Part shown: piece after piece, positions 5,870 through 36,475 of the stretch
How positions within the stretch are numbered: position 1 is the stretch's first letter
Layout: each line of letters begins with the position of its first letter
DNA from: a virus
Virus genome (UHGV): UHGV-0277313
Length of the DNA: 64,000 bases
Direction: 5' to 3' (one strand)
Notes under the pieces: generated by a model
The model's database searches: none
Seen by the model: the letters and a program-made list of their open reading frames with translations, nothing else
What the model was told of the DNA's origin: nothing
Translations under genes and position numbers: made by a program

Positions 5870-7588
5870 TTACATAATTTCATCTTCATCAGGTTTAACA
5901 CTGGATGCAACAACTAAATTTGTATAAGGCTCTTCAGAGGTTGAACCGTCTATATAGTTGATTTCAACTTTCATAGGTTCACCTTCGACAGTTTCACCAA
6001 CAACGCCAACTTCATAATCTATTTTGTTTTCATCTGAATCTTCATCACTGGCAACAGAATCAGAATTAGATTCATCACTAACAAGTGTGTCACCCAAAGA
6101 ATCACCGACATCATTAGACAGAGCGGAATCAAGATTAAAACTATCGGTAACAGAAGAGTCATTATCAAGTCCTTCAATACCGACATCTTCACCATCTTCT
6201 TTTAAATCTTTATTTAAACCCATAACTTTATTGTATTGATCTTCAATACCCATTTCGCGTAAGATTGCTGCCCGAAGATCGTCATTAACTTTAATAACAT
6301 CTTTTTCTTTCTTTTTGGGCTGCTTTTTCATAGGAGCTAAAACTTTACCTTCAATCCCATGAATATCTTTAGAAGTCATACCAGCTGTGAATACACAACG
6401 ACTTGCATCTAAACAACCATCGCTGACAGTGGCGGCAGGAGTAACAGCAGCAACTACATCTAAACCGCCAATACCTGCACAATCACATTCCTTGAACAAT
6501 TTTTCTGTTTTATTTAACTGAATCTGTTCAGCTACCATATTTTTAACAACTTTATTAATATCCATACCGTTCATTAAAGCAAAAACTGCTTTATCCATAG
6601 GTGTGGATTCATGTAAAGGTGTACGGTGTGTAATATAAACATTTTCTGAAAGTAACCGTCCCATAACAAAATCGTCTTTTAAGATTTCATCTGTTTTATC
6701 ACCTTGAATTTCGAAATAGAACAGGCCTTTATTTACATCTTCTTTAATTTCTGAAACTTTCCAATTTCTGGCTGTTGCTTCAGGGTGAACATGAAACATT
6801 GTATTAGACAAATCATTCAAATCGGTTGATTCAAAAACAACGATATGCGAATCAATTAAATCATCAACCGAAAAACATTCTTGAATTGTATCAATTTCTT
6901 GAACTTCATTAGGATCGCGTGAAATAACTGACATTGTTTGAGGTGTCTTTAATGCAGTCTTTAAAGATTCTAAATCTAATTCAATACCACTATTACCAAA
7001 AACTAACACAACAGAATTTGCAAAAGAATCTTCGTCTTTTGGTGAAATAACCATTGGAAAATATTTTCCATCTTCTGTTGCAAAAGCAATCTGCCGATCG
7101 TCAGACTCTTTAAATGTACGAACAACAACTTTCTTTAAAAGATGTGTTGATTCTTTCATAACTAACATCAAATTGATTAATGAAGATTTCTTCATATCTC
7201 CTAATAAACATTCACCTAAAGGAATTTTAATACCTGGTAAAAATTTAATACCTTCTTGCATGTCACGAGGGTAAATCGTTAATTCTAATTCACCATCAAT
7301 ACCTTTACGTAATCTCAAAAATTCAAGTAAACTGAAAGGTGACATGTGTGACATATCGGCATTGTTTGCGTTAACCTTTTCAAGAGGATAGTTCGCCATA
7401 AAACGAGGAGCAAAAATTCGTGCGCCATTAACTTCTAAAAATGTGCAAACATGAATTTCATCGCCTTCAATTAGTAAATCACCTTTTTCTTTACTAATAA
7501 CTTTAAAGGTTTGTGACGGATCATCATAAGAAACTAAAACATTAACGCCGGAAATTGATTCGGTTACAAGTTTATTCAATTTAATCAT
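5870..7588 (-). CDS. hypothetical protein with D/E/S-rich acidic C-terminus
   Basis: 572-aa ORF, low-complexity acidic tail (DSSVTDSFNLDSALSNDVGDSLGD...). Confidence 0.55.
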   Translation of the reverse strand: MIKLNKLVTESISGVNVLVSYDDPSQTFKVISKEKGDLLIEGDEIHVCTFLEVNGARIFAPRFMANYPLEKVNANNADMSHMSPFSLLEFLRLRKGIDGELELTIYPRDMQEGIKFLPGIKIPLGECLLGDMKKSSLINLMLVMKESTHLLKKVVVRTFKESDDRQIAFATEDGKYFPMVISPKDEDSFANSVVLVFGNSGIELDLESLKTALKTPQTMSVISRDPNEVQEIDTIQECFSVDDLIDSHIVVFESTDLNDLSNTMFHVHPEATARNWKVSEIKEDVNKGLFYFEIQGDKTDEILKDDFVMGRLLSENVYITHRTPLHESTPMDKAVFALMNGMDINKVVKNMVAEQIQLNKTEKLFKECDCAGIGGLDVVAAVTPAATVSDGCLDASRCVFTAGMTSKDIHGIEGKVLAPMKKQPKKKEKDVIKVNDDLRAAILREMGIEDQYNKVMGLNKDLKEDGEDVGIEGLDNDSSVTDSFNLDSALSNDVGDSLGDTLVSDESNSDSVASDEDSDENKIDYEVGVVGETVEGEPMKVEINYIDGSTSEEPYTNLVVASSVKPDEDEIM

Positions 7589-7644
7589 TTAAAAAGTCTT
7601 CCACGACAGCTCGAATAGATTAAAAACACACTACAAAAAAGAAC

Positions 7645-7683
7645 AACGCCGTGTGTTTTAAAAAACACACGGCGTTATTTTTA
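7645..7683 (-). terminator. rho-independent terminator (palindromic, usable on both strands)
   Basis: AACGCCGTGTG-loop-CACACGGCGTT stem flanked by A-run upstream and T-run downstream; sits just after stop of ORF 7699..8430. Confidence 0.6.
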
Positions 7684-7698
7684 TATCAACAATAAAGA

Positions 7699-8430
7699 TT
7701 ATGACCAACTATCAATCGCGTTCTTCGCTTCCTGTTTGACAGAATCATCAATCAAATCATCGTCTTCAACAGGTTGCGCTTCGGGCAGTTCACCTTCCGC
7801 TTCAGCAGAATCTTTATTTTCTTCAGGAACTGCAGGTGTCGCAACACGATCATTTGGCTGTTCTTCACGAATTTTATTCGCTAGAGCAGAACGCAAAGAG
7901 TCTTTATCATCTGCATCAACTCCAACAAATGAAGTCAAAGCTTTCAAAGGATCATGTTCTGTACCAAAATCATAGCTACGACCAACATATTCATTTACCA
8001 TTGAATTGTAAATGCTATTGAATTCCTGTAAATCATCTGATGAGAAAACATAAGAAGAATCTTCTTCTTCATTTTCCTCTTCAGGATTTTTTGTATTCGT
8101 CAGTTCAATAGCATATTCAGGAGCAACCCAAGGTTTACCATCAACTATTGAAGCTGATAAAACACAAAACGCGCCATCCTCTAACTCTTTATAAAGGATG
8201 ACATCATCACGAGTGACACCGTTATCATCAACAACAATATCACCACTCATTTCCCAACCTTCAGGTAAGGCTGGTTTAACCAAAGTGTTCATAAACGCTT
8301 CAAAATCTGCAGCATTTTTAAACACTGATTCATATAAGCTTTCAGATTCACCATAAACACTTTCAATGAAGGCTTTACGGCATTCAGCTGTCGCTTTTCT
8401 TGATTCATAAAGGATCATAATATTCTCCAA
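7699..8430 (-). CDS. hypothetical acidic protein
   Basis: 243-aa ORF, acidic C-terminal half. Confidence 0.5.
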   Translation of the reverse strand: MENIMILYESRKATAECRKAFIESVYGESESLYESVFKNAADFEAFMNTLVKPALPEGWEMSGDIVVDDNGVTRDDVILYKELEDGAFCVLSASIVDGKPWVAPEYAIELTNTKNPEEENEEEDSSYVFSSDDLQEFNSIYNSMVNEYVGRSYDFGTEHDPLKALTSFVGVDADDKDSLRSALANKIREEQPNDRVATPAVPEENKDSAEAEGELPEAQPVEDDDLIDDSVKQEAKNAIDSWS

Positions 8431-8435
8431 TTACA

Positions 8436-9200
8436 TTAAATTAAAGATTCACCATCGCAATAAGCAAATGCTGGACGATCACAACCATCAAACATCAAAC
8501 GTAAATTATTTCGAGGAGTTAAGATAATCTTAACAATCTCGCCATTTGAGCCTTCAGGTCTATTATGACGAAAATCGGAACAACACTTCTTAAAAGCTTT
8601 TTTTAAATTGGCATTGATAGGATTTGCACACAAAGCTTCACATTCAGCTAAAGTGATTTCTTTTCCATCAATGTCTGAACATTCTTCTTTTGGTTCAGGT
8701 GCAGATTCTAAAGAAACATCAACATCTTCAATAGAATTTGCTAATTGATCGGCCTGTGCAAAAGAATCTTGTGCATCTGCCATAAGATTATCCATTTCAG
8801 AAAAATCAACAGCGTTATCACTATCATCTTCCTTTAATGAACCATCAGTTTCTTGAGCGGCAACGACAGGTGCAGCAGGTTCTGGTTTCAAACCAATCTG
8901 CTGATCTGCCAATAACGCACCTTGCATATACACAAAGTTTGTTAAATCAACAACGCCATTAATAATCTCTGCTAGCGGCGTCAAATCACTAAACCCAGCT
9001 GCAGACCACGTATCACGCAAATGTTCCATATCAATTCTAATTTGCGCTAAAGAATGAATAACGCTGTCAATTTCATGAGGAATTTCAGACATCTTTGCTT
9101 CTTTTAAAGCAACAAGAGCCTGTTTGCTTTCCGCAAGCTTTTTCTTCTTTTCAGCCTTTTTAACAACTGATTCGAAGAGGGTATCAAGATAATTGACCAT
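8436..9200 (-). CDS. hypothetical protein with Cys-rich C-terminus
   Basis: 254-aa ORF; C-terminal CEALC...CCSDF...CDRPAFAYCDGE. Confidence 0.5.
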   Translation of the reverse strand: MVNYLDTLFESVVKKAEKKKKLAESKQALVALKEAKMSEIPHEIDSVIHSLAQIRIDMEHLRDTWSAAGFSDLTPLAEIINGVVDLTNFVYMQGALLADQQIGLKPEPAAPVVAAQETDGSLKEDDSDNAVDFSEMDNLMADAQDSFAQADQLANSIEDVDVSLESAPEPKEECSDIDGKEITLAECEALCANPINANLKKAFKKCCSDFRHNRPEGSNGEIVKIILTPRNNLRLMFDGCDRPAFAYCDGESLI

Positions 9201-9277
9201 TACTTTCTCCGCAATATTTAAAGCAGTTCAAAAAATAGAACGAAAAAATTTAAAAACCTTTTAAAAAACAGTTTAAA

Positions 9278-9670
9278 TCATTTCGTTGATAATTCTGTTG
9301 AAATTAATAAAGCAATAGGCGTTATATTTTGAATAATTCCAGTATATACATCCATTAAAGCTGCACCGCCAATATTTTCAACTTCGGATGCATTTTTAGG
9401 CATCTGTTCATAAAATGAATAAAAAGAATTTAACATACTTAAAGCTTGAGGAGATAAAACAACCACTTTATCTTCCAACGCTTTAACTAACGAATTGTTA
9501 AAACGAATTGAGGCTGTTACAGCTTCAGTCATTTTATTCATCAATTCACTTGTATAGTCGTATGGTTTACAGTTGCTTGAATATTGAAAATAATCATACA
9601 ATAATTCTAAAGCTTCTTCACTTTTAGCAAGTAATGCTTCTTCTTTTTCATTCAAAGGCATTTTCATCAT
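9278..9670 (-). CDS. hypothetical protein
   Basis: 130-aa ORF. Confidence 0.45.
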   Translation of the reverse strand: MMKMPLNEKEEALLAKSEEALELLYDYFQYSSNCKPYDYTSELMNKMTEAVTASIRFNNSLVKALEDKVVVLSPQALSMLNSFYSFYEQMPKNASEVENIGGAALMDVYTGIIQNITPIALLISTELSTK

Positions 9671-12815: not shown

Positions 12816-13538
12816 TCACCTATTCTTTAAAATGTCATTTGTTGTATTTATAGCTGTCTTTTTCCACTTTTCCAATTCAGCCTTTAATTGACAACGTTTA
12901 ATAAAATCTTGACCACAAGATTCCACTGTATAAACATATTTAAAAGCAGAAATCAACAAATGTAAAATTGTTGATATTTCTGTATTGGAATAACCTAATT
13001 GCATTAAACGTTCAACCGGAATTTTTAGAAAAGTTTCACCGTTTTCATTTACAGTTTCAAACTTTATATTAAAGTCATTAGCTAATTTCTGAACAGGTTC
13101 GATAAATAATTCTACACCCTTAAGATTGAAATTAACAAAACCATTCTTAAATAAAGCATTCTTACCAACTGATTCTTTTTCCAAATCAAGAAATGTTTTT
13201 ACTCTTTTTGCAATGCTTACAAAAAATGGAATAGATAATACAAAAGATAAAATCTCATCTTTCTGTTTATTACTATAAACAATCTTTTTACTTCTTTTGA
13301 ATTTAAAAATTGTATTTGGATATGTTTCAGGAATTTCAACAGTAAATTCATTACGTTTAGAATTTAACTTTACAATAAAACTATTAATACCAACAACGTG
13401 ATCTTTACATGGTTTATCTGATATACTGATACAATATCCTAAAATGCTAAAAAAGTTTTCTAATGTATCTTCATAAAGAGAATCATCATAATGTTTAATG
13501 TTAAATGTTAATTCTTCTGTCAAATCAATCAAGTGCAT
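12816..13538 (-). CDS. hypothetical protein
   Basis: 240-aa ORF. Confidence 0.5.
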   Translation of the reverse strand: MHLIDLTEELTFNIKHYDDSLYEDTLENFFSILGYCISISDKPCKDHVVGINSFIVKLNSKRNEFTVEIPETYPNTIFKFKRSKKIVYSNKQKDEILSFVLSIPFFVSIAKRVKTFLDLEKESVGKNALFKNGFVNFNLKGVELFIEPVQKLANDFNIKFETVNENGETFLKIPVERLMQLGYSNTEISTILHLLISAFKYVYTVESCGQDFIKRCQLKAELEKWKKTAINTTNDILKNR

Positions 13539-13800
13539 TTAAATCAACTCCATCAACAATGTTTGAAACTCTTTTTTGTTCATTTCGCAAATCATCAATA
13601 TATGTATCTTTTATAGTTAAATACTTACCTAAATCAATTAAACGATCCAGACGAACAATAAAGCTATTAACAAAATCGCTCCCTAAATTTGATGCATCAC
13701 ACAATTCGCGAACAAAACCAATTAATTCTTCACGATCTTGAATAAATCTGACCGCCTGATTTTCATCAAAAACTGTTTTATTTTCTTCAGGTGTACTCAT
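13525..13800 (-). CDS. hypothetical protein
   Basis: 91-aa ORF. Confidence 0.4.
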   Translation of the reverse strand: MSTPEENKTVFDENQAVRFIQDREELIGFVRELCDASNLGSDFVNSFIVRLDRLIDLGKYLTIKDTYIDDLRNEQKRVSNIVDGVDLNALD

Positions 13801-14147
13801 GCTTCGTAATCCAAAATTCCTAATTTAAATTCACGTTCAGTGTCTTCATTATCATACCTAATTTTTACAAAATCAAGTAAATTTTTTATCACAATAAAAT
13901 CTGCACTGAACCACTCACCACTTAAATGGTTAAATTTTAGATAGCGATGCATGATCGACTCCAGAATTTTTGCAGGAGCTTCTTCAATTTCTACACAATA
14001 TTCAAGTGACAATTTCTTTGGGTTACCTGTCTGAAGTTGTCTGACCCTTCTTTTTGGATCCTTTGACAACCCTACTTTAAAAGCTTCACCATTCGAAATC
14101 ACATAAATAAAACTACTCATTTCTAAAATATTTAAATAACATTTCAT
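13797..14147 (-). CDS. T5orf172 / GIY-YIG-superfamily domain protein
   Basis: YVISNGEAFKVGLSKDPKRRVRQLQTGNP matches the T5orf172 (GIY-YIG-like) signature. Confidence 0.5.
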   Translation of the reverse strand: MKCYLNILEMSSFIYVISNGEAFKVGLSKDPKRRVRQLQTGNPKKLSLEYCVEIEEAPAKILESIMHRYLKFNHLSGEWFSADFIVIKNLLDFVKIRYDNEDTEREFKLGILDYEA

Positions 14148-14173
14148 AACCTGCGATTAGAAAAATCAAATTT

Positions 14174-17100
14174 TTAGATTTCAATTACTTCCTGTTTCTT
14201 CGAGTCATAAACAAAACTATCTTCAGCTTTAACCTCTTGTGTTTTAGCCTCAATATATGGAAACTCTACAGGAGTTGCATCTAAATATGCATTATTAACA
14301 GCACCTACGCAATTGTGTACAAACACATTACAATCCAATGCAAAATTATGAATTGAATTTAATACAATATCATATACAGGTTTTGTATTTTCAATTTTTG
14401 TAATCTGTGTAACATACACATGTAAATTTTCAACTTTAGATTTCTGTTCTGCTAATTTATCACCTAAATCGTGTTTTAGCAAATATCGTCTATATCCTTC
14501 TGGATTTACTTGCTTCATTAACGCTAACCCTTCGTTAATGATTTTTGTTCTAGCCCGTTTCATAACAGTACGATCATGAAAAGCTTTAATTTCACGACCA
14601 GTCATTGCATGTAAATTTGTATGTTCAATATTTGTTAAAGGGACCAAATTTTCAGGTCTATCATCATTTTTATTATGTGACTTGTGATGAATAACTGTAA
14701 ATTTACTACCATCAATTACAGCACGTTTTTTTGCTTCTGCAATAGCGTTTGACAATAAGTCTTGAGAAACAATTTTATATAAAAATTTCGGCGTTCCTTT
14801 AAATGGATTAACAACTTTTCTATATCTATCATGATAGTTTAATTCATGATAATAATTAAAAGGCATTAACTCATCATACAGAGCAATATCTTCTGCCTGT
14901 TTATATTCACCGCTTTTCATTAGAATTAAATGATCATCAGTACATGCAAAGGTTTTTCCGTTGCTTAAAGTAAACTGCAACAAAGTTTCAGGAATATGTT
15001 TTTCTAACACACGTTCAATCTTAACAGGCTTTAACTGTTTTGATTCACAATCACATGCTAAAACCCATTCATGCTCAATATCAGAATTGTATAACTCTTC
15101 TATTGTTAAAACTTTTCCAGACAATAAAAAGATTTTTGTATCGTAAGCCAAACAACTATCAGCCATATCTTTTTTGTGCGTTGTTACTAGTTTTTTATCT
15201 GCAACACCAATATAACCTAATTGTTCACGCAAATATGGGCAATCACCAACTTTAATACGTCCTGTAATCATCCACTGTGCAAAATTTAAATATGCCGTAA
15301 TATCACGATCTACTGATTGATAACGTACGTTCTCAAATTCATGATGCTGCTGTAATGATTGTCTTACATATTCAGAATTGTGAACGAACACACCAGCCGA
15401 TAATGCGAAATTTGGAGCTTTATCTATACTAATATCATACACATCTTCATATTCGTCTAGAAATTCAATATATTTGACTTTATGATTAATTCTATGCTTT
15501 TTGAACCACTCTTCACGATATTTAGTCTTTTCTTTGTTGATAGTTTCTAACGAAACAGTTTTTTTATAATTTTTTCCAAACAATTTTATTAAATGACCTC
15601 TAGAGCCAGGATATCTCACTTTCATTTTCGCAACATATTCTGGATTTTCCCATTTTAATAAATTTGCTTTTGTTATATTCTGTAATGCAATATCTGATGT
15701 TTTACTACCTAATCTCGGTTTTCTTGTTTTATTTAAAATTTTAATTCTTTCAGATTGCTCTTTAGCTCTTTTGCAATCATCTTTTTTAAACGATTTTTTT
15801 GTACAATCAATCATCTCTTGTTTATATTTTTTTGCAACTAATTTCCCAGATTCACTTTGACACTTCCTTGCATATGCTGATTTATTTTTATCTGCATAAA
15901 ATTTTTCTTTTATTTTCTTGCATTTGATAGATCTCTTCTTTCTGGCTTCTTCTGTTTGAGATTTTTCTACAACCCTATTCCAAACAGTTGGATCTAATCT
16001 TAATAATTCTTGAAAATGCTCAACATGCACTTTCAAATGTTCATCTTTTGTTAACAATACTAAATTGTTTGGATTATTATTTAATTTATTAAAATCTTTA
16101 TGGTGTATGTGAAAGCCTTTAGTTGACCCATATAAACTATTTGCTATTTTTCCATAAGTTAACCCCCAACTATTTGTTAAAGGGTTTAATACATTTTCAT
16201 AACCTTTATCAGAATATTTCCTATATAAAGGCATCAATGAATCACCACAATTTAAATATTGTGCCTGAATAAAATCACCATTCCTTAACATAAAACGATG
16301 ATCTAATGTGCATCTTATTTCTTCATCATTATCTAACACAACTTTCATAATGCGTTTTTTGCCATTATTTTTAGCATTAATAATTCGTCCAGGAACAACT
16401 TTTTTTGTTTTCAGGTCTAACGTATATGTAAACAACTCCTCGCCACTATTGAATCTTTCTAAAATATCTTTAAAAGAAACTTCCTCACCATTTAATAATG
16501 ATACTTTTGTATCACCTGTGAAACATTGAAACTGATCATACGAAATTGTCTTAATATACACACCTGCTTTATCACGCAAATCCAATGATAATTGTTTAAT
16601 AGCATCATGATCAATTCGGTTTGGCGCTGAAATCCATGATACAAAATCAGCCACAAAAACAGTTTGATGTTCTCCTAAATCATTAACAACATACTCTTTA
16701 TGCCATAACGAATATCCTGCTTGTGACGTTGACTGTGAAGCTAGATCAACGTGAACGAACCTCGGTGCATTTGGATACCTTGCTAAACGTGGTCCTAAAG
16801 TTGTTTCTTGAAATAATTCTTTTGGCAACTTATCAAGTAAAGGTATCTGATCACCTAAAGGCGCTTCTAAATGAACCTCTGGTAATAATTGTTTACAATC
16901 ACCGATACGTGACAAATCGTCAAAAGGTCTATCAGATGTATCTGTCGTTCTACCAGCAATGTTTTGAATAGCCGCTTCAATATTATTTTCAAACTCACGT
17001 CTATACTCAATAGGAACTTCTAATAATTCACAACCTGCAGGTGGTACATAATTTAGTTTTTCTAAAGGTACATCATTATATTCTTCAGGCAACACTTTTG

Positions 17101-17521
17101 ACGGGTGTGTTTTAGTACCAATATAAATCCAAAAATGTTTACCTGATAATCCTAAAGCATCACCCTTAACTTCCCAAATAGCTGGATCTAACAATAATGT
17201 TTCTGGATCGTCAGGTTTGATTTTATGTATATATTCCCAAACCATTCCTGATTTTGATTTAGATGATGAAATCAACGCACAATAAATTAATGATGAATTT
17301 AAAAAACGTGATCTAATACGTTCGCGTAAACCTGTATAAAGTTTAAACGCTTCAGATGAATCCTTCTCTTCAGCTTCGTCAAAAATTGAGTTACATGTTA
17401 CAACTCCAGACGATAATAGATAATTGTGCAAATCATTATTTACTTCTAAATTATATACTTTTACAGGTTGTTCAAGTTTTTTAGTTTTTATGGAATTAAT
17501 CTTCATAAGTAAAACTTTCAT
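14174..17521 (-). CDS. terL: terminase large subunit, C-terminal precursor fragment: split-intein C-half (Int-C) + Walker B + nuclease domain, interrupted by two HNH-type inteins
   Basis: Starts with DnaE-Int-C-like 44 aa (VYNLEVNNDLHNYLLSSGVVTCN then S); extein SIFDEAEE (Walker B) continues the upstream fragment's ...IGYSVFG, aligning with T4 gp17 RGNSFAMIYIDECAF; RFVHVDLASQ nuclease motif; two full inteins with TxxH and HNF...HN blocks. Confidence 0.8.
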   Translation of the reverse strand: MKVLLMKINSIKTKKLEQPVKVYNLEVNNDLHNYLLSSGVVTCNSIFDEAEEKDSSEAFKLYTGLRERIRSRFLNSSLIYCALISSSKSKSGMVWEYIHKIKPDDPETLLLDPAIWEVKGDALGLSGKHFWIYIGTKTHPSKVLPEEYNDVPLEKLNYVPPAGCELLEVPIEYRREFENNIEAAIQNIAGRTTDTSDRPFDDLSRIGDCKQLLPEVHLEAPLGDQIPLLDKLPKELFQETTLGPRLARYPNAPRFVHVDLASQSTSQAGYSLWHKEYVVNDLGEHQTVFVADFVSWISAPNRIDHDAIKQLSLDLRDKAGVYIKTISYDQFQCFTGDTKVSLLNGEEVSFKDILERFNSGEELFTYTLDLKTKKVVPGRIINAKNNGKKRIMKVVLDNDEEIRCTLDHRFMLRNGDFIQAQYLNCGDSLMPLYRKYSDKGYENVLNPLTNSWGLTYGKIANSLYGSTKGFHIHHKDFNKLNNNPNNLVLLTKDEHLKVHVEHFQELLRLDPTVWNRVVEKSQTEEARKKRSIKCKKIKEKFYADKNKSAYARKCQSESGKLVAKKYKQEMIDCTKKSFKKDDCKRAKEQSERIKILNKTRKPRLGSKTSDIALQNITKANLLKWENPEYVAKMKVRYPGSRGHLIKLFGKNYKKTVSLETINKEKTKYREEWFKKHRINHKVKYIEFLDEYEDVYDISIDKAPNFALSAGVFVHNSEYVRQSLQQHHEFENVRYQSVDRDITAYLNFAQWMITGRIKVGDCPYLREQLGYIGVADKKLVTTHKKDMADSCLAYDTKIFLLSGKVLTIEELYNSDIEHEWVLACDCESKQLKPVKIERVLEKHIPETLLQFTLSNGKTFACTDDHLILMKSGEYKQAEDIALYDELMPFNYYHELNYHDRYRKVVNPFKGTPKFLYKIVSQDLLSNAIAEAKKRAVIDGSKFTVIHHKSHNKNDDRPENLVPLTNIEHTNLHAMTGREIKAFHDRTVMKRARTKIINEGLALMKQVNPEGYRRYLLKHDLGDKLAEQKSKVENLHVYVTQITKIENTKPVYDIVLNSIHNFALDCNVFVHNCVGAVNNAYLDATPVEFPYIEAKTQEVKAEDSFVYDSKKQEVIEI
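14312..15154 (-). mobile_element. intein 5 of terminase (281 aa, HNH-type endonuclease domain)
   Basis: CLAYDTKIF...TDDH...VIHHKSHNKNDDRPENL...HNFALDCNVFVHN followed by +1 Cys. Confidence 0.75.
15377..16525 (-). mobile_element. intein 4 of terminase (383 aa, HNH-type endonuclease domain)
   Basis: CFTGDTKV...CTLDHRF...HIHHKDFNKLNNNPNNL...NFALSAGVFVHN followed by +1 Ser. Confidence 0.75.
17390..17521 (-). mobile_element. split-intein C-terminal half (Int-C, 44 aa) of terminase intein 3
   Basis: MKVLLMKINSIKTKKLEQPVKVYNLEVNNDLHNYLLSSGVVTCN closely resembles Npu DnaE Int-C (MIKIATRKYLGKQNVYDIGVERDHNFALKNGFIASN). Confidence 0.75.
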
Positions 17522-18458
17522 TGAAAATCAAATTAATTGTACTAACAAACTTAGATACTGAACCAAATTTTTTAATTAAACTATCCCACAAAGGCAAAGA
17601 TCTTTTGTTTTTATCCGAAAGATTTCTTGCTTTCTGATATGACAACTTGTTGACAACATTACCTTCAATTAATTTAACAACATTATAATATCTAGCTAAC
17701 GTAGCTAACTCTTGTTTTTCTCTTGCTCTTTCTGGATACAATTTATTAAACTCTTGCGTATTTTTTGAATGCAATTTTCGTGTAGAATCTGTAATTACCC
17801 TGTTTTTATTTGAATTAACAACTACATCGTGATGCCTTTGTGATGAATTAAATTTTCTCATCAATTCTCTTCCATGTTCTATACAATGCATCTTTCCTTC
17901 CTCTGAACGTAAATACTGTTTCATTCTTTTTGATGCACTTTCTCTACCCTCTATACTTTTGCTATAAGGTATTAAAACTTTTTTAACACGTTCTGCTCTT
18001 CTTTTTATAAACTCTTTATCGTTATTAATCTTGTTTAAATTATTTCTTGCACAAGATTTCATATATTCTGAAGACATCAGATCTTTCATTCTATTTCTAG
18101 CCCTATTCTTTGCTTCGACAGTTCTAGAATATTCAACAAGATGTTTTGCAGTATTTAGCAATTTTGCTGAATCACTTGATAAACCTTTCCCACCTTCAAC
18201 TAAATTATAACATTTATCATCATTTACAGTGTTACTATTAACAAGTACGCGTTCAAAGTTAAATGCATCTTTCTCTGAATCAAAAAAACGTAAAATTTTT
18301 AATTGAAAATTTTCTTTTCCATATTTTTTTATGGCTTTTTTTATTAAAACGCCAGAACCTAAATACCTATCATTAAGGTTATTTGTTGCATGTTTTCCAT
18401 AATAAAATTTACCGTTTATTAAATTAGTTATTTTATAAACAAAAATAAATTTACTCAT
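17496..18458 (-). CDS. free-standing GIY-YIG homing endonuclease located between the two halves of the terminase split intein
   Basis: N-terminus FIFVYKITNLINGKFYYGKH...NDRYLGSG is a canonical GIY-YIG motif; first ATG is 2 nt after upstream stop (track start 18470 is GTG); 3' end overlaps Int-C ORF start by 26 nt. Confidence 0.8.
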   Translation of the reverse strand: MSKFIFVYKITNLINGKFYYGKHATNNLNDRYLGSGVLIKKAIKKYGKENFQLKILRFFDSEKDAFNFERVLVNSNTVNDDKCYNLVEGGKGLSSDSAKLLNTAKHLVEYSRTVEAKNRARNRMKDLMSSEYMKSCARNNLNKINNDKEFIKRRAERVKKVLIPYSKSIEGRESASKRMKQYLRSEEGKMHCIEHGRELMRKFNSSQRHHDVVVNSNKNRVITDSTRKLHSKNTQEFNKLYPERAREKQELATLARYYNVVKLIEGNVVNKLSYQKARNLSDKNKRSLPLWDSLIKKFGSVSKFVSTINLIFNESFTYED

Positions 18459-18459
18459 A

Positions 18460-21213
18460 TTACATAACACCTAACAATTCGTCTTGATCAGTTAAATCTT
18501 TTGCATGCTTGCACCATTGATTATTATACATTATTAAAGTTTTATCAATTCCTATCTTTGGGTTTTTTATAGGGAATTTATGATCTGGCGTGCATCTTAT
18601 GCTCTGTCCGTTTTCCAACTCTATTTCAACTAACTCATTTACTTCTTTAGTACATTCACAATTATTAATATTATTCCAAGTAAACGTCCCATCAAGTTCT
18701 CTAGTTTTTACTTTATATTGATTACAACTTTTTGCAATATCTTCTATTCTTATATTTCCACTATCTGTTACAACTTCTGTATCACCTGTTAAACAACCAA
18801 AGACACTGTAACCAATAATGTGATTAATATTTGAACCTACCGACAAGTATACATTGTTTGGAAACCTAATGCCATTGCCTTGACGACAGAATGGAACCGG
18901 ATCATTTGGCCCAAACGAATCGAAAGCCGTCATTTTACGAACTTCATGAAAACATGGCGAATTACGAATCATTTCCAATACAGGCTTTAATGCAGTATCC
19001 TGCGCTTGCTGCAATGTAACAGAAATCATCAATGCAGATAAAACAGTATCAGGTGCAATATTGAATAATTTATGAGGCGATCTTAAACAACATATACGAT
19101 AAAGTGCATAAATTAAACCTCTACGCGCAATAGTTGATTTTCCTGAATTGTGTAAAATAATTAAATTTCCTGAATCCGTTACTACAGCAAAATTGTGATA
19201 AACAGGGACTTCTATATCATAGACCGCACATTTTTTATCAAGATCCTGCACATTTTTAACAGTAACACTACCATTATTTGCACACAATATATCATTCTTT
19301 TTTAAATCTTTCGCTTCAACATAATGACCTGAACTCAATAGAAATCTATGATCGCTCGTACATTCTAACGTTGTTCCGTCAGATAAACTAACACTTAATA
19401 CCTTTCTATTCTTTCCAGTACAACGCGCATTAAAAGCTTTTGCTTTTACAAATACATTATTTTTAATGTCATACGATAAAACATTAAATTCATTATCTTC
19501 ACCTAAACTTGCTAAATTTTCAATGGACACTAGTTTGTTATCAGACAATATTTTTGTATCACCAGACAAACAACCAATACTTCCACGAAAAACACAATTA
19601 GAAGCATATACCCCACTGTTAATTGCAAAATTATGATTGCCACGAATACAAACGTTGAAAGTGGATTCGCTTTTTTCTAACAATTTTATACTAACAATTT
19701 TATGATTATATTTGATTTCAACTTTTGTGTTAATATCAAACTTATTGCACCAGGCCTTTAAAGTCTTTACTTTAATACAAGCATTACTTGCACATTCCTC
19801 TATAGTATAACCACAACTTAATATATACCTAACTTCTTCTTCAGTCACCTTTTTTAATAAATCTTTATGATTGATATTATAAAGTTTTAACTTATTGATG
19901 ATATAACATCTGGAACAATTTAATTTCCTTTCAACTTCTCTTAATGAAAAACTATTTTTTAAAGTTTCAATAAAACGCTCCTTTGATATATCTAACCTTG
20001 CTGAAGGATTATTTTTTAAGTTTTTTTCTCTTTGTTTTATTCTTAAATTTTCTTTTAATAATGCACCTTTTTCGCTATTCCAAAAAGCAACAGAAATTTT
20101 GGAAGCATAATTATCTTGCAAATTCCTCAATGACATACGTTTTGAAGCCAACTTATGTTGTTGTTCGTCTGCCCACCTGTTTGCTGAACCTTTTTTTAGT
20201 CTATTTTTTACAGAATCAACAACTTCTTTGACACCATTCTTATAAGCTTCGTTATACAATTTTAATTGTTTTCTTGCGAATTTTGTATGATAATCTAGAT
20301 GTGTCTTACTATCTAAATAAATTAAATTAGTTGGATTGTTATTGTATTTGTTACCATCTTTATGGTGTATGACTTCATAACGTACCCTTTCACCTCTATT
20401 CTTTACAGGTGCTTTATATTTTCTGCCATATTTCCACAATGCACTTAAACGATGTGTGTATTCTGAACTTGCAACAGAAATTTTTGAAGGTATGATTACT
20501 TTTTCATATGATTTCACACCTCTTGCAGTTTTGTCTTCAACAAACCTCTCAAAAGGCATTAATGAATCACCGACTTTTAAATCCTTTGTCAATACCCACT
20601 TATTATTTCTATTCAAAAATTTATGATTTTCAGTACACTTAAAAACTTTTCCATTATCTAAAGTTATTTCATAAACTCTCTTTTCACCACTATATTGAAT
20701 ACCTTCTATTTCACCGGGTTCGACAGAATGTTTTTGTTCGTTCCACGTGTATACATAACAACCTTCATAACCAAATAAACATAAATCTGCTACAGTTTTT
20801 ACAGAACCATCCATTAATGGAATTTCTACATCACCAGTAACACATTCAAAATATTGATTAGATGGATCAAATATTTTTGCTAAAATCTGTCGCCAATAAG
20901 GATAAATAATGGCATACGAATTGCCCATATATGCATCATCTTTCAAGAATTCTTGAATAGTTGGCATATGTTTTTTATAAAGCAAAACATCAAGCTGATT
21001 TAAAAACTGTTCCTGCCCTGTATAATACAAATAGAAACCCATTCTTTTTTCAAAATCAGGCAACTGTTCTAAACGTGAACCACGGGGAATTTGTTCTGAA
21101 TAAAACGAATAAATATCATTAAATTCTTTTGAATGTATCAAGTTAATAATGTTATCTTGATCTTCAACTGAATATACAGGAATTTGATAATTATTGTGTA
21201 AAATCTCAACCAT
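18460..21213 (-). CDS. terL: terminase large subunit, N-terminal precursor fragment: ATPase Walker A region interrupted by two inteins, ending in split-intein N-half (Int-N)
   Basis: Exteins YFE / CVFRGSIG / SGKSTIARRG...IIGYSVFG give P-loop GSIGSGKST and an ATPase domain aligning with T4 gp17; three Hint N-terminal blocks (CVTGDVEIP, CLSGDTKIL, CLTGDTEVV) with TxxH blocks. Confidence 0.8.
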   Translation of the reverse strand: MVEILHNNYQIPVYSVEDQDNIINLIHSKEFNDIYSFYSEQIPRGSRLEQLPDFEKRMGFYLYYTGQEQFLNQLDVLLYKKHMPTIQEFLKDDAYMGNSYAIIYPYWRQILAKIFDPSNQYFECVTGDVEIPLMDGSVKTVADLCLFGYEGCYVYTWNEQKHSVEPGEIEGIQYSGEKRVYEITLDNGKVFKCTENHKFLNRNNKWVLTKDLKVGDSLMPFERFVEDKTARGVKSYEKVIIPSKISVASSEYTHRLSALWKYGRKYKAPVKNRGERVRYEVIHHKDGNKYNNNPTNLIYLDSKTHLDYHTKFARKQLKLYNEAYKNGVKEVVDSVKNRLKKGSANRWADEQQHKLASKRMSLRNLQDNYASKISVAFWNSEKGALLKENLRIKQREKNLKNNPSARLDISKERFIETLKNSFSLREVERKLNCSRCYIINKLKLYNINHKDLLKKVTEEEVRYILSCGYTIEECASNACIKVKTLKAWCNKFDINTKVEIKYNHKIVSIKLLEKSESTFNVCIRGNHNFAINSGVYASNCVFRGSIGCLSGDTKILSDNKLVSIENLASLGEDNEFNVLSYDIKNNVFVKAKAFNARCTGKNRKVLSVSLSDGTTLECTSDHRFLLSSGHYVEAKDLKKNDILCANNGSVTVKNVQDLDKKCAVYDIEVPVYHNFAVVTDSGNLIILHNSGKSTIARRGLIYALYRICCLRSPHKLFNIAPDTVLSALMISVTLQQAQDTALKPVLEMIRNSPCFHEVRKMTAFDSFGPNDPVPFCRQGNGIRFPNNVYLSVGSNINHIIGYSVFGCLTGDTEVVTDSGNIRIEDIAKSCNQYKVKTRELDGTFTWNNINNCECTKEVNELVEIELENGQSIRCTPDHKFPIKNPKIGIDKTLIMYNNQWCKHAKDLTDQDELLGVM
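18463..18795 (-). mobile_element. split-intein N-terminal half (Int-N, 111 aa) of terminase intein 3
   Basis: CLTGDTEVV...IRCTPDHKF... ends at ORF stop without C-terminal HN block; complementary Int-C begins the next terL fragment. Confidence 0.75.
19147..19572 (-). mobile_element. intein 2 of terminase (142-aa mini-intein, no endonuclease domain)
   Basis: CLSGDTKIL...LECTSDHRF...VYHNFAVVTDSGNLIILHN then +1 Ser of SGKST. Confidence 0.75.
19597..20844 (-). mobile_element. intein 1 of terminase (416 aa, HNH-type endonuclease domain)
   Basis: CVTGDVEIP...FKCTENHKF...VIHHKDGNKYNNNPTNL...GNHNFAINSGVYASN then +1 Cys; codon positions checked against sequence. Confidence 0.75.
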
Positions 21214-21242
21214 TAGAAACCTATTAGAAAATTTTTAATGAA

Positions 21243-21962
21243 TTACTCTTCGTTCAATTTCTTCTTTTCTTCTGCTTTTATTTCATGAAAAGTTGCATCT
21301 AACATAGTTGCAATCTTTTCAGTTCCAGTTTGTATTTTTTCTTCTGGCTTGTATTCAACCTGACTTTGTCTTGGAACACCTATTTGACCCCAAACACCTG
21401 CCGCTTCCGCCATTTTAGTCATGCTGCTGACTGTTTTAGGTTCAAGTGATTTCATTACATTTTCATTATTACTATAAACATTTTGTTGTTGATTCAATTG
21501 ATTTTCAACATGATTATCATAAACATTATGTGTTGGACCTTGCATGTTGATATTGATACCACCGGACCGTGCGCCAAAAATTCTATCTAAATCAGCAACA
21601 CCTGCTTCATTAATAGCTCGATACATGTCAGTTAACTCTGCGGGCGTGCAAGAAACCATTACTTCATTAAAACGTGACAACAAATTTCGTTTCATATCTT
21701 CTGCAATCAACCCGTTTTGAAAACGATAATTCAAATATGTCTGCGAAATAAAATCAGTCATATTTTTTAAAGTTGATGCACTTTCTTTAGAATTGATCTC
21801 TTTTAAAGCATTTGCAAAATTTATTACTGACTTAAAAATTCCTAATGTATGTTTATTGCTTTCATCACGATTATAATCATCAGCACTAATCATACCTGAT
21901 GACCCACACCCTTTTACAGGAACCATATCTTCTTCAAAATCGTCATTGTAGTAATTGGCCAT
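21243..21962 (-). CDS. hypothetical protein; possible terminase small subunit by position (immediately upstream of terL)
   Basis: 239-aa ORF; position and weak resemblance of ELTDMYRAINEAG to T4 gp16 C-terminal region only. Confidence 0.3.
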   Translation of the reverse strand: MANYYNDDFEEDMVPVKGCGSSGMISADDYNRDESNKHTLGIFKSVINFANALKEINSKESASTLKNMTDFISQTYLNYRFQNGLIAEDMKRNLLSRFNEVMVSCTPAELTDMYRAINEAGVADLDRIFGARSGGININMQGPTHNVYDNHVENQLNQQQNVYSNNENVMKSLEPKTVSSMTKMAEAAGVWGQIGVPRQSQVEYKPEEKIQTGTEKIATMLDATFHEIKAEEKKKLNEE

Positions 21963-22363
21963 TATTTTAAATCCACAGCTTTTTGTAGCAAATACTTAAC
22001 GTTTATACCTTTTGCTTTCATTGATTTTATCCATTGTTTTGCTCTCTTTTTAATAGCCATTAAAGTCACTAAATCAACTTCATACGCTTGAATAAAATCT
22101 TTTTCAGACATTGGTTCAACATACAAATGATAAAGATACAATGAAGCCATTAACGAAGTTGACAACTCCATTGCAGTCGGAACCTTAAGACTTGCACCAC
22201 CTAAAACTGTTGCTAAACGTAGAAAATTTGCTGGGCCAATAACCGCACAAATAGCGGAAATAGAAGGGTACCCTTCTTCAGACAAAACAGATAATGCTAG
22301 ATACAAAAAACTGTTTTCACTATTCAGTACCTTTGCACACTTCTTCGTTGCTTTCGATGGCAT
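21962..22363 (-). CDS. hypothetical protein
   Basis: 133-aa ORF; stop overlaps downstream ATG (TAATG). Confidence 0.4.
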   Translation of the reverse strand: MPSKATKKCAKVLNSENSFLYLALSVLSEEGYPSISAICAVIGPANFLRLATVLGGASLKVPTAMELSTSLMASLYLYHLYVEPMSEKDFIQAYEVDLVTLMAIKKRAKQWIKSMKAKGINVKYLLQKAVDLK

Positions 22364-33573: not shown

Positions 33574-34536
33574 TTAAGATTGCGTTATTTTATTGAAACT
33601 CTTGAAGTATAATTTTAAGAAATGTCTGTACTCAATTCTCTTTTTATACCTATCAGAATACGAATCAGGCTTCATATTATCAGGATCTTCGTCGCCATTT
33701 AATTTAATTATTGTAACTGTTCCATTATAAAATTTTCTTAAGGTTTTGTAATTATTTATAATTTCAGCTCGTGAAACATCCCCGTCGAAACTAAACGAAA
33801 TTTCCGTTGGGTTTTTCGACGCGATAATTCTTGCTTGCGAATCAGCTAATACTTTACCAAAAATAGATACTGCAGTCACATCTTCAGGTGTATTACGGTT
33901 AGCTGCAATACCCGAAAAAACACCTTCAGTAATAATTACTTTACCATTTGTTGATACATTCTGAATATTCCAAACAGCAAATGATTTGTGACTTCCTTGA
34001 GGATTGATATATTTTGCTTCAGGGTTTTCTGATACATAATCACGTGCAACTAAATAAACAACGTTATTATTCAAATCAAACGTCGGAACAATAATCCTTC
34101 CCCGATATCTTCCTTGCCCAATACGGATATCGTATTTTTTAATTTCTTCAAACGTTATATTTCTTGAACGCAGATACTCAACTGCATTAACAAATGAACG
34201 ATCTATTTTTACTGAAATATTGTCCAAATCAATCAATTCAGCTTGAATTAACAGACCACTCGGTGATGTATATTTTATACGCTGTTTAGTATCAATGTTG
34301 TCTAGTTTATATCTTAATAATGCACCACCATTTACATAACCTTGTAATAGCTGATCTACTCTTCCAGACCACCCACATCGATAACAATGAAATACGTTTT
34401 TTTCAAGTGATAAACTTAATTTATAATCATCATAACGTTTACCTAACATTTTACAATTTGGACAATGTGTCACATATTGATCGACATTCGATGTTAAGCT
34501 TACATCTCTCAAACTTTCAACGCGTACATCACACAT
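33574..34536 (-). CDS. DNA primase (gp61-like: zinc ribbon + TOPRIM)
   Basis: CPNCK...HCYRCGWSG zinc ribbon; TOPRIM-like IITEGVFSGIAANR...FSFDGD; directly downstream of DnaB-like helicase as in T4 41-61. Confidence 0.65.
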   Translation of the reverse strand: MCDVRVESLRDVSLTSNVDQYVTHCPNCKMLGKRYDDYKLSLSLEKNVFHCYRCGWSGRVDQLLQGYVNGGALLRYKLDNIDTKQRIKYTSPSGLLIQAELIDLDNISVKIDRSFVNAVEYLRSRNITFEEIKKYDIRIGQGRYRGRIIVPTFDLNNNVVYLVARDYVSENPEAKYINPQGSHKSFAVWNIQNVSTNGKVIITEGVFSGIAANRNTPEDVTAVSIFGKVLADSQARIIASKNPTEISFSFDGDVSRAEIINNYKTLRKFYNGTVTIIKLNGDEDPDNMKPDSYSDRYKKRIEYRHFLKLYFKSFNKITQS

Positions 34537-35408
34537 TATTTAACACCATTAGCAGCTTTTTTCATTTCCTTAACGTCATACGGCTCACATTCTTTCACTT
34601 GATTAGCCGCTTTATCAAAGTTTACATACACAGTTGTATTTGTTTTACCACGACGGGCTTTAGCAACATATAATCTCATTTTACCATTGTCAGACTCTTC
34701 ACGAGTTTGGTTTAATGTAACAATGCCATATGCCACATGCGCTTTTCTTGATGAATCAGCTAACATGTCTTGCGATGCCACTTCATTGTCTTCAGTGTTC
34801 CATGCAGCCTTTCCTAACTGTGAACCTGTAACAACAGGACAATTAAATTGGTCAGCTAACGCCTTCAAGTCATAAAAAATTGTACCCATTTCTTCATATG
34901 TACTTTCAGATGACCGTCGCGTTTGTTTGTTCGGTAACATTAAATCTGCATAGTCTACAATAATTAAACCAGGTTCAAAATTTTCCAAAGAATGTAACTT
35001 CGTCAAATATGTTCTCAAATGATTAGCAGATACTGTTTTATTAGAATAATAAATAGTCCTTACATTAGGTGCCCAATATTTAATTTTCTGCACACGCTGT
35101 TTGTATTTTTCAATTTGTGATTCATCCAATAAATCTCTCATTGACATACCAGTTGAACAGGAAATGATATTTGATAACACTTCCTTTTCAGACCACTCAA
35201 ACGAAAAATACACAACCGGGCGTCTCTGAAACATTGCCTGATATGCCAAAAAGCTCAAGAACTTACTTTTTCCACGACCAGGCGCTCCGCAGTTTTTACT
35301 GTAAAAACAATGACTTAGCTCGAAGTTGTGATACTTATTATTCACCGTCAAATTGTAAACAGGCACCTTTTCATCAAGGTGAATGCGTTTTTTATTTACT
35401 AATTTCAT
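34536..35408 (-). CDS. gp41/DnaB-like replicative helicase, C-terminal fragment (split-intein Int-C + RecA-like ATPase domain)
   Basis: MKLVNKKRIHLDEKVPVYNLTVNNKYHNFELSHCFYSKN (Int-C) then CGAPGRGKSKF (Walker A) and DnaB-like ATPase fold; ATG at 35408 with AAGGAAG RBS (track start 35411 is TTG). Confidence 0.8.
   Translation of the reverse strand: MKLVNKKRIHLDEKVPVYNLTVNNKYHNFELSHCFYSKNCGAPGRGKSKFLSFLAYQAMFQRRPVVYFSFEWSEKEVLSNIISCSTGMSMRDLLDESQIEKYKQRVQKIKYWAPNVRTIYYSNKTVSANHLRTYLTKLHSLENFEPGLIIVDYADLMLPNKQTRRSSESTYEEMGTIFYDLKALADQFNCPVVTGSQLGKAAWNTEDNEVASQDMLADSSRKAHVAYGIVTLNQTREESDNGKMRLYVAKARRGKTNTTVYVNFDKAANQVKECEPYDVKEMKKAANGVK
35292..35408 (-). mobile_element. split-intein C-half (Int-C, 39 aa) of helicase
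   Basis: DnaE-Int-C-like sequence ending ...HCFYSKN followed by +1 Cys. Confidence 0.75.
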
Positions 35409-35518
35409 CAATTACTTCCTTACTTAAACCCAACTTCAGAACATAATCCAAATCGTTTTTGTATAAAAACTTCAGTGATGTTATCACAAAATCAGACAGT
35501 TCGTCAACCTTTAATGTT

Positions 35519-36475
35519 TTAAAATTCATCATCTTCCGACAAATCTTCCGCTTTTTTATATGCAACACCTTCTGACCATATAACTTTTTCATCACCTTTT
35601 TTTGGATTTGTAATTCTAAATTTATGATCAGGTGTACATTTAATTGTATACCCATTATCAAAAGTTAATTCGATCAATTCGTCTGTATCTCTAGTTTTCC
35701 ATACATTATAAATATCAGTTTCGAAAGAGTTTCCATTCTCATCAACTGAATAGGCTTTTTTATCTTTAAAGTTGTTTACCAAATCTTTGATTTCGATGAA
35801 ACCTTTATTTGTTTTCACTTTTGTATCACCTGTTAAACAGAATACATACAGTTCACCTTTTGCAATGCCGCCACCAAAAGCGTCATCTAATGAAGGAATG
35901 CCTGTTGTGAACATATTATCTTTGCCATAACTGTCACGTAACATTTGAGGTAATTCATCAAGTGAACTAACCAAATCTAACCCAAGATTTGTTCCTGCAC
36001 CAACAGACAATGCATCATCGATAATAGATACGGCTTTTTCGTAATCATTTGTTTTATCATACATATCGACCAATTTACCAATTGCATCACGCATTGCAAC
36101 GCTTTTAGCAAAATCTAAAGCTTGATCTTTTATGTACTGTGCGTCTTCAATAACAGTTGTTGTTAAGCTACGAATCACTGAAGCAAAATTTTCTTGTTCG
36201 ACAATAGGAATTGCATATTTACTCGTATAATTATTCAATTCAGTCAACAAAACAGATTCAGTCGGTTTTGTATGATACTGTTCGTAATATGAAATAATCC
36301 ACTGACAAATATTTTGCAAATAGACATTATCAAAAAAAGAAGGTTTAATTAATTCCACGCCAACTGTTGATAAATAGGTGAAATCTTGAAATAATAATGC
36401 AACAATCTTTTTCTGCATTTCAACTTCAAAATTATATGTTGTATCCTGTACAACTTCTTCGTTTTCATTGTCCAT
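35519..36475 (-). CDS. gp41/DnaB-like replicative helicase, N-terminal fragment (DnaB N-domain + split-intein Int-N)
   Basis: DnaB N-terminal-like domain; ...GGGIAKGELYVF then CLTGDTKVKT...IKCTPDHKF... to stop. Confidence 0.8.
   Translation of the reverse strand: MDNENEEVVQDTTYNFEVEMQKKIVALLFQDFTYLSTVGVELIKPSFFDNVYLQNICQWIISYYEQYHTKPTESVLLTELNNYTSKYAIPIVEQENFASVIRSLTTTVIEDAQYIKDQALDFAKSVAMRDAIGKLVDMYDKTNDYEKAVSIIDDALSVGAGTNLGLDLVSSLDELPQMLRDSYGKDNMFTTGIPSLDDAFGGGIAKGELYVFCLTGDTKVKTNKGFIEIKDLVNNFKDKKAYSVDENGNSFETDIYNVWKTRDTDELIELTFDNGYTIKCTPDHKFRITNPKKGDEKVIWSEGVAYKKAEDLSEDDEF
35522..35839 (-). mobile_element. split-intein N-half (Int-N, 106 aa) of helicase
   Basis: CLTGDTKVKTNKGFIEIKDL...TIKCTPDHKFRI...; Cys codon position verified (aca at 35837-35839 on + strand). 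Confidence 0.75.

Follow-up and report, generated by a model that had tools for sequence, protein, structure and literature searches.

The large terminase (TerL) gene in a 64,000-nucleotide stretch of the virus genome UHGV-0277313 (the whole of this stretch is referred to as the window) occupies positions 14174–21213 of the minus strand, where its protein-coding segments (exteins) are interrupted by five inteins, one of which is split by a free-standing homing endonuclease gene (HEG) of the GIY-YIG type. Very probably, the locus represents a functional TerL gene of an uncultured phage of ~280–310 kb, colonised by five independent inteins, one of them a mini-intein subsequently split by the GIY-YIG HEG. 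This reading is carried by direct observation of the anatomy of the locus and its exact junctions, of empty, contiguous and mini alleles in the relatives, of an apparent purifying selection and of a terminase fold in the extein family.

Anatomy of the Fractured Terminase Gene

Three tightly packed open reading frames (ORFs), each in a different reading frame, make up the locus:

18460–21213, minus strand: ORF A, 917 aa, the N-terminal TerL precursor (extein 1, intein 1, extein 2, intein 2, extein 3 and the N-terminal part of the split intein, Int-N)
17496–18458, minus strand: free-standing GIY-YIG HEG, 320 aa, with its ATG at 18458
14174–17521, minus strand: ORF B, 1115 aa, the C-terminal TerL precursor (the C-terminal part of the split intein, Int-C, then extein 4, intein 4, extein 5, intein 5 and extein 6)

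The ATG of the HEG lies 1 nt past the TAA stop of ORF A, and its end overlaps the start of ORF B (which is 1110 aa long if translation starts at Met6, nt 17506); the frame of the HEG differs from those of both neighbors. The middle ORF was recognized by the Pfam GIY-YIG model (3.4e-5; 24.5 bits at a cutoff of 22.6) and by phrog_314, homing endonuclease (7.3e-34). The terminase is regarded as fractured because this gene sits between its two halves. The sequence-only reading, from which the present analysis started, had recognized the two halves but missed the HEG between them; the class of such loci, a terminase example included, has been known since 2009. A scan for promoters and terminators was uninformative (58 promoter-like sites vs. 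46.7 ± 6.5 in shuffled sequences, and no terminators).

The two precursors total 2032 residues (917 + 1115), and translation with six ranges excised leaves 655 aa of extein, exactly as that reading had proposed. The parts of the precursors, in the order of translation, are as follows:

20845–21213, minus strand: extein 1, aa 1–123, the N-terminal region of TerL to ...SNQYFE (matched by the TerL family hidden Markov model, HMM, at its positions 6–117)
19597–20844, minus strand: intein 1 at site a, 416 aa, class-1, with an HNH module; C1, TENH, ...VYASN/C (here and below, a slash marks a splice junction)
19573–19596, minus strand: extein 2, 8 aa, CVFRGSIG, the first half of Walker A
19147–19572, minus strand: intein 2 at site b, a 142-aa mini-intein inside the P-loop, GSIG/C...LHN/SGKST
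18796–19146, minus strand: extein 3, 117 aa, beginning with SGKST of Walker A and ending in ...GYSVFG, the initial half of the Walker B strand
18463–18795, minus strand: Int-N of the split intein (intein 3) at site c, 111 aa, CLTGDTEVV...CTPDH...ELLGVM, then stop
17390–17521, minus strand: Int-C of the split intein, 39–44 aa, ...VKVYNLEVNNDLHNYLLSSGVVTCN/S
16526–17389, minus strand: extein 4, 288 aa, SIFDEAEE (Walker B), the remainder of the ATPase domain and the beginning of the nuclease domain, to YDQFQ (TerL HMM positions 235–526)
15377–16525, minus strand: intein 4 at site d, 383 aa, HNH-bearing, in the conserved nuclease motif DQFQ/S
15155–15376, minus strand: extein 5, 74 aa, SEYVRQ...KKDMADS
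14312–15154, minus strand: intein 5 at site e, 281 aa, HNH-bearing, after the acidic nuclease motif KDxxDS, S/CLAYDTK...FVHN/CVG
14177–14311, minus strand: extein 6, 45 aa, the C-terminus of TerL

Positions 527–614 of the TerL HMM cover exteins 5 and 6 together. Intein-free homologues can be aligned with the spliced extein over its entire length, and none of the junctions shows a gap.

Natural Alleles of the Gene in Relatives

The relatives, all of them unannotated metagenomic sequences, were collected by a search with the spliced extein followed by an exact-sequence cluster look-up. Those with exteins 97–100% identical to that of the window lack inteins 1–4 in nearly every combination, and each absence at sites a–d is exact to the residue. 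The occupied sites in these alleles are:

P0001: site e only
P0003: sites b and e
P0002/L001: site c (contiguous) and site e
P0005: site d (mini) and site e
P0178: site c (contiguous), site d (mini) and site e
P0137: sites a, b and e
P0193: sites b, d and e
P0195: sites a, b, d and e in a single 1877-aa ORF

At ~90% extein identity, the following arrangements were found:

L003: sites b, split c, d and e
L004: sites a, b, split c and e
L007: sites b, split c, e and f

Thus, intein 1 is missing precisely in P0001, P0002 and P0003 and present in P0137, P0195 and L004; intein 2 is missing in P0001 and present in P0003. The junctions of inteins 1–4, as they had been predicted, were in this way confirmed by natural empty alleles, those of the 142-aa mini-intein in the P-loop being fixed by P0001. 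Over the shared blocks, the DNA of L001 is ~99% identical to the window, with inteins 1, 2 and 4 and the HEG cleanly absent. Intein 4 has a reduced counterpart in P0005, whose splicing segments are identical to those of the window at 103 of 103 N-terminal and 35 of 35 C-terminal residues, ~243 residues around the HNH module being deleted; in P0008 and P0012, site d harbors an unrelated mini-intein.

Intein 5 is present in every member of the clade, down to 60% extein identity, and is absent in P0019 and in more distant homologues with no gap in the alignment. Its junction was likewise verified by this gap-free alignment (KDMADS/CVGAV against KDMVDSCVGSV of the intein-free homologues). One more site, f, is occupied in L007–L009 (P0015; locus coordinates 6001–9351) by a 384-aa HNH intein, APRF/C...SN/CHVDLAS, in front of the invariant Asp of HVDLA in the nuclease domain. 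The residue at its +1 position is Cys in L007–L009 vs. Val in the intein-free alleles.

The highest load seen, five inteins, is that of the allele in the window. Site by site, the near-identical relatives capture every stage of the life cycle of inteins and HEGs, i.e., the empty site, the full HNH intein, the HNH-deleted intein, the replacement by an unrelated mini-intein, the contiguous mini-intein and the mini-intein fractured by the GIY-YIG gene.

The slot directly downstream of TerL is variable as well. In the window, it holds a 116-aa ORF of the T5orf172/MUG113 kind (13797–14147, minus strand); L001 possesses, in addition, a serine-resolvase gene and an OrfB_IS605 (TnpB-like) gene, and in L003–L006 the slot holds a gene of a 721-aa Glyco_transf_8 protein.

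The Split Intein and the GIY-YIG Gene

Joined together, Int-N and Int-C are 79% identical to the contiguous 148-aa mini-intein of P0002/L001, and, according to the alignment with intein 4, the break falls at the position where the latter holds its HNH module. The claim that a split intein separates Walker A from Walker B and the nuclease was borne out both by the block HMMs (see below) and by this contiguous allele. Compared with the contiguous intein of L001, the central loop in the window is replaced by a divergent patch of ~95 nt, a stop, the GIY-YIG gene, a new start and ~50 nt of further divergent sequence, past which the identity of the window and L001 is back to ~99%. Such divergent flanks are the pattern that invasion by an endonuclease gene with co-conversion of the flanks would produce. 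The layout of Int-N, GIY-YIG gene and Int-C is kept in the divergent relatives L003 and L004, where the HEG is 58% identical.

Since the HEG stands between the halves of a split intein, the locus belongs to the class of "fractured genes" described in 2009 (see below).

Insertion Sites and Identity of the Terminase

The extein possesses the Walker motifs GSIGSGKST (Walker A) and IFDEAEE (Walker B), and the invariant acidic positions in HVDLA, YDQFQS and KDMADS correspond to D485, D557 and D631/D634 of the intein-free P0019. At the level of sequence, its relationship to known terminases is difficult to detect: the local Pfam copy yielded no terminase match to the spliced extein at E ≤ 1, the label precomputed in Pfam for the extein family is PF27249 MJ0330_N, and PDB sequence searches with the extein, a 10-sequence profile and an 83-sequence profile returned nothing relevant. 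Still, the extein itself matched phrog_2, TerL, in PHROGs (2.8e-7). The AlphaFold model (pLDDT 91.7) of P0019, which is 38% identical to the extein over 98% coverage, was compared with the PDB by Foldseek, and the best 23 matches were all large terminases, including those of PhiV-1, D6E, Sf6 and T7; HK97 TerL was at the top (2.9e-14) and T4 gp17 came ninth (1.5e-10, 9% identity). Accordingly, the extein is a genuine ATPase-nuclease terminase outside the gp17 sequence family. The "T4 gp17-like" designation of the sequence-only reading holds, therefore, for the domain architecture and the fold but not for the sequence family, for which Pfam and the PDB gave no sequence match, and the best match of the fold was HK97 TerL.

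When mapped on the model of P0019, the insertion sites all lie within ~4 residues of invariant motifs, namely, the P-loop strand, the P-loop, Walker B, DQFQS and KDxxDS. Site a (intein 1) is at the start of the beta-strand leading into the P-loop and site b (intein 2) within the P-loop; site c (the split intein) is in the Walker B strand, three residues ahead of the DE pair. In the nuclease domain, sites d (intein 4) and e (intein 5) directly follow the invariant DQFQ motif and KDxxDS, respectively, and site f, occupied in relatives only, is located in the first nuclease strand ahead of the invariant Asp.

A profile search of 1.84 billion representatives returned 7002 members of this TerL family. 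Large insertions, counted from gaps in the domain table together with the intein block HMMs among 176 sequences of the family, were single in 61, double in 27 and triple in 2; by eye, four inteins were discerned in P0092 (2204 aa). The recurrent positions of the insertions coincide with sites a–f. The family is large and intein-prone, with one or two inteins being common. No match to the 7-kb locus was found by megablast among 50,697 phage records, and close relatives in culture are lacking; at the protein level, the best matches were from Pseudomonas phage QdP_Psa3 (40%) and Xanthomonas phage phiXF1 (38%).

Splicing Motifs, Endonuclease Modules and Selection

The Pfam model Intein_splicing matched both ORF A (E 9.9e-34, four stretches) and ORF B (E 4.9e-32). 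Exactly five N-terminal and five C-terminal modules, all at the predicted junctions, were detected with block HMMs derived from these very inteins. Cys occupies position 1 in all five inteins, each of which also has a TxxH motif in block B (TENH, TSDH, TPDH, TLDH and TDDH); the C-terminal junctions are N/C, N/S, N/S, N/S and N/C. The penultimate His is found in inteins 2, 4 and 5; its place is taken by Ser in intein 1 (SN/C) and by Cys in the split intein (CN/S). Canonical blocks had been ascribed to all five inteins; this is true of C1, TxxH and N/C or N/S, but the HN end is present in only three of the five, and block F of intein 4 reads APNF rather than HNF.

The HNH_3 model of Pfam matched both precursors, ORF A with 26.3 bits and ORF B with 44.7 bits. 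The HH...N...N...H...H motif is intact in inteins 1, 4 and 5, between splicing blocks B and F (in intein 1, it reads HHKDGNKYNNNPTNLIYLDSKTHLDYH), in agreement with the earlier assignment of HNH-type domains to these three full inteins. The pairwise identity among the five inteins is only 25–35%, so they are considered to be independent acquisitions. For the same reason, a recent intragenic duplication of an intein was ruled out.

In the comparison of the window with L003/L004, dN/dS amounted to 0.02–0.06 for the exteins, 0.05–0.29 for the inteins, 0.10–0.12 for Int-N and ~0.3 for the HEG, although dS is saturated and the values are rough. The lengths of the elements are conserved between the window and these loci. 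Judged by these ratios, the inteins appear to be under purifying selection.

There are points that weigh against the reading of the locus as a functional terminase gene. Two of the inteins (1 and 3) lack the penultimate His, and the dN/dS ratios are as rough as stated above. No obvious Shine–Dalgarno sequence precedes the ORF starting with Int-C. A second TerL is lacking in the 64-kb window, but this is a limited scope for a genome of at least 277 kb. Finally, all splicing and endonuclease activities, as well as the co-transcription of the three ORFs, are inferred. As to the first point, a missing penultimate His can slow down the cyclization of Asn, although inteins devoid of this residue are known to splice.

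Proposed Mechanism of Splicing and Mobility

According to the preferred reading, the three ORFs would be translated into the N-terminal precursor, the endonuclease and the C-terminal precursor. Cis-splicing by the class-1 mechanism, with Cys1, TxxH, the terminal Asn, and a Cys or Ser at +1, would then remove inteins 1, 2, 4 and 5. The two parts of the split intein, Int-N (111 aa) and Int-C (39–44 aa), would associate with each other and join Gly806 of ORF A in trans to Ser45 of ORF B, thereby rebuilding the Walker B strand (YSVFG-SIFDEAEE) and furnishing the 655-aa ATPase-nuclease. Hence, an essential enzyme would need four cis-splicing events and one trans-splicing event.

The functions of mobility would belong to the three HNH modules and the GIY-YIG enzyme. 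During co-infection, these nucleases would cut the empty alleles, and the elements would be copied in by recombination; mobility of this kind would explain the mosaic of presence and absence in the near-identical relatives. It seems unlikely that the load is more than tolerated, i.e., that selection maintains it in the phage, either as a weapon in competition or as a device of regulation. If it were a weapon, four site-specific nucleases would be directed at the essential terminase gene, and co-infecting relatives with emptier alleles would have their genomes destroyed or converted; if it were a regulatory device, the four cis-splicing steps and the trans-splicing step would delay the terminase conditionally, e.g., depending on the redox state or protein concentration.

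Alternative Explanations

The locus might be a decaying or otherwise non-functional copy of the terminase gene with at least one splicing-dead intein, packaging being accomplished by another terminase encoded elsewhere in the genome. The two inteins without the penultimate His would fit such a copy, and so would the fact that the window covers 64 kb of a genome no shorter than 277 kb; but the reading frames are all intact, the dN/dS ratios of exteins and inteins are low (see above), identical alleles recur on many long contigs, no second TerL is found within the window, and Cys1, TxxH, the terminal Asn and the +1 nucleophile are retained in five of the five inteins. Decay is, on these grounds, improbable.

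An even less probable option is that the HEG resides in a self-splicing intron or a translational bypass element, so that RNA processing restores the contiguous mini-intein ORF and trans-splicing is unneeded. Phage GIY-YIG HEGs are often intron-borne (general knowledge, discussed in PMC2677866), and a contiguous allele of the site-c intein does exist. On the other hand, the search of positions 13500–22000 against all Rfam families, group I and II introns included, gave no match at E ≤ 1. There is no room for an intron structure since the ORFs abut or overlap, with a single nucleotide between the stop of ORF A and the start of the HEG, whose end runs into ORF B. A junction hairpin upstream of the HEG, as in some of the loci described in 2009, was not significant (z = 0.67), and the layout of stop and ATG is kept even where the HEG is only 58% identical.

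To a similarly low degree, one could believe that the two proteins remain unspliced and associate through their intein parts into a non-covalent heterodimer, like the split NrdA of phage Aeh1. Fractured genes devoid of inteins can indeed work by association of subunits (PMC2677866, PMC3045599). Here, the break interrupts the Walker B beta-strand in the core of the ATPase, and an unspliced 150-aa HINT domain would therefore occupy the active site. Both Int-N and Int-C have kept their splicing residues, and dN/dS is ~0.1 for Int-N.

The view of the five-intein allele as a metagenome assembly chimera of co-existing strain variants can hardly be credited in spite of the highly polymorphic intein content of the population: ORF A (with a, b and Int-N), the HEG and ORF B (with Int-C, d and e) each occur as an exact sequence on at least 10 contigs of up to 313 kb in the Logan and ENA assemblies, the three adjoin on a 276,920-bp contig, and the identical ORF A protein is encoded on 10–15 metagenomic contigs. 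Because the exact sequences recur across independent assemblies, the locus is taken to belong to a circulating jumbo phage and not to a chimera.

Comparison with Known Systems

Every component of the locus is of a known kind, be it TerL inteins, fractured genes or multi-intein proteins. Fractured genes were described by Dassa, London, Stoddard and Pietrokovski in 2009 (PMC2677866) as loci of phage origin in which a HEG of the GIY-YIG or Vsr-like kind lies between the halves of a split intein; their list includes a terminase, atypically split, and their stepwise model proceeds from the intein via HEG invasion and HEG loss to the dispersal of the halves. As in those genes, two adjacent same-strand ORFs are found here, with Int-N ending the first, Int-C opening the second and a free-standing HEG between them. 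The terminase locus of 2009 is, however, a myovirus gp17-like one with an atypical split and a C part of 122 aa, whereas the present TerL is of the MJ0330_N type and its intein is split at the canonical position of endonuclease insertion (111 + 39–44 aa), the gene carrying four cis inteins besides. Another difference from the 2009 set is that a contiguous, HEG-free, ancestor-like allele is observed here in a 99% identical gene. In a limited literature search, no report was found of a contiguous and a fractured allele of one intein in 99% identical genes.

Natural split inteins capable of trans-splicing, as shown experimentally, are also known from metagenomic phage TerL genes, e.g., GOS-TerL and AceL-TerL (reviewed in PMC11766414). 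They share with the window their location in a phage large terminase gene but are atypically split (Int-N of 25–37 aa and Int-C of 104–115 aa) and have Ser1/Cys+1 or Cys1/Cys+1, while the split intein of the window is canonical, has Cys1/Ser+1 and stands directly ahead of Walker B.

TerL is the main host of inteins in mycobacteriophages, with seven insertion sites, all in the ATPase domain; some of these inteins have active endonucleases, and the ones tested splice efficiently (Kelley et al. 2016, PMC5050341). In both cases, catalytic motifs (the P-loop and Walker B) are targeted. The mycobacteriophage sites are, however, spread over distinct TerL proteins, several inteins per protein not being described, whereas the window has five in one gene, two of them in the nuclease domain, where a third site (f) is used in a relative. 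The same limited literature search found no description of inteins in the TerL nuclease domain, nor of four cis-splicing inteins and one trans-splicing intein in one viral gene. The present locus shows that motifs of the nuclease domain of TerL are intein targets, as those of the ATPase domain already were.

As regards the number of inteins, the published maximum for any protein is represented by Prp8 of Anaeramoeba with five (PMC10710043), the earlier maximum having been four; the ribonucleotide reductase (RNR) of Trichodesmium has four inteins (Liu et al. 2003). The resemblance to these multi-intein proteins consists in several independent inteins at distinct conserved sites of one essential conserved protein; RNR and Prp8 are, however, encoded by cellular genes and all their inteins splice in cis, whereas the host gene in the window is viral and one of its five inteins is split, with an HEG included. 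Within the limited literature search, five inteins equal but do not exceed the published maximum. The sequence-only reading called the arrangement extreme, which is fair insofar as the maximum is equaled; but the load does not surpass that of Prp8, one or two inteins are common in this TerL family, and P0092 has, by eye, four. To our knowledge, five inteins in one gene are the most reported for a virus.

Other Inteins of the Window

A gene encoding a DnaB-like replicative helicase (34536–36475, minus strand) is also fractured by a split intein. Its parts, ~107 nt apart and with no endonuclease gene between them, are:

35519–36475, minus strand: N-half ORF, 318 aa, ending in Int-N, ...GELYVF/CLTGDTKVK...EDDEF, then stop
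34536–35411, minus strand: C-half ORF, 291 aa, DnaB_C 1.1e-22, with Int-C at its start, ...HNFELSHCFYSKN/CGAPGRGKS, in the P-loop

In its arrangement, this split intein corresponds to the stage of the 2009 gene-breaking model at which the HEG has been lost, and together with the terminase alleles it matches steps I, II and III of that model. The model becomes testable with matched natural substrates, the question being whether the GIY-YIG enzyme cuts the contiguous allele. Candidate orthogonal tools are also provided by the split intein of the terminase, a new canonical one with Cys1/Ser+1, and by several mini-inteins of compact size.

Next to the DnaB-like gene, a superfamily 2 (SF2) helicase of 654 aa (36515–38479, minus strand; ResIII and Helicase_C) bears a mini-intein of ~134 aa in its P-loop, ATG/CFVGDT...IVHN/SGKTE. 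In total, at least seven inteins, including two split ones, are present in the 64-kb window. Beside this helicase, a 437-aa ORF (38560–39873, minus strand) had no Pfam match at E ≤ 0.001 and is, by eye, a candidate of the TnpB/OrfB type. No tRNA genes were found in the window (1–64000). The G+C content of the window is ~30%, and the sign of the GC skew changes near 46 kb, where the orientation of the genes switches.

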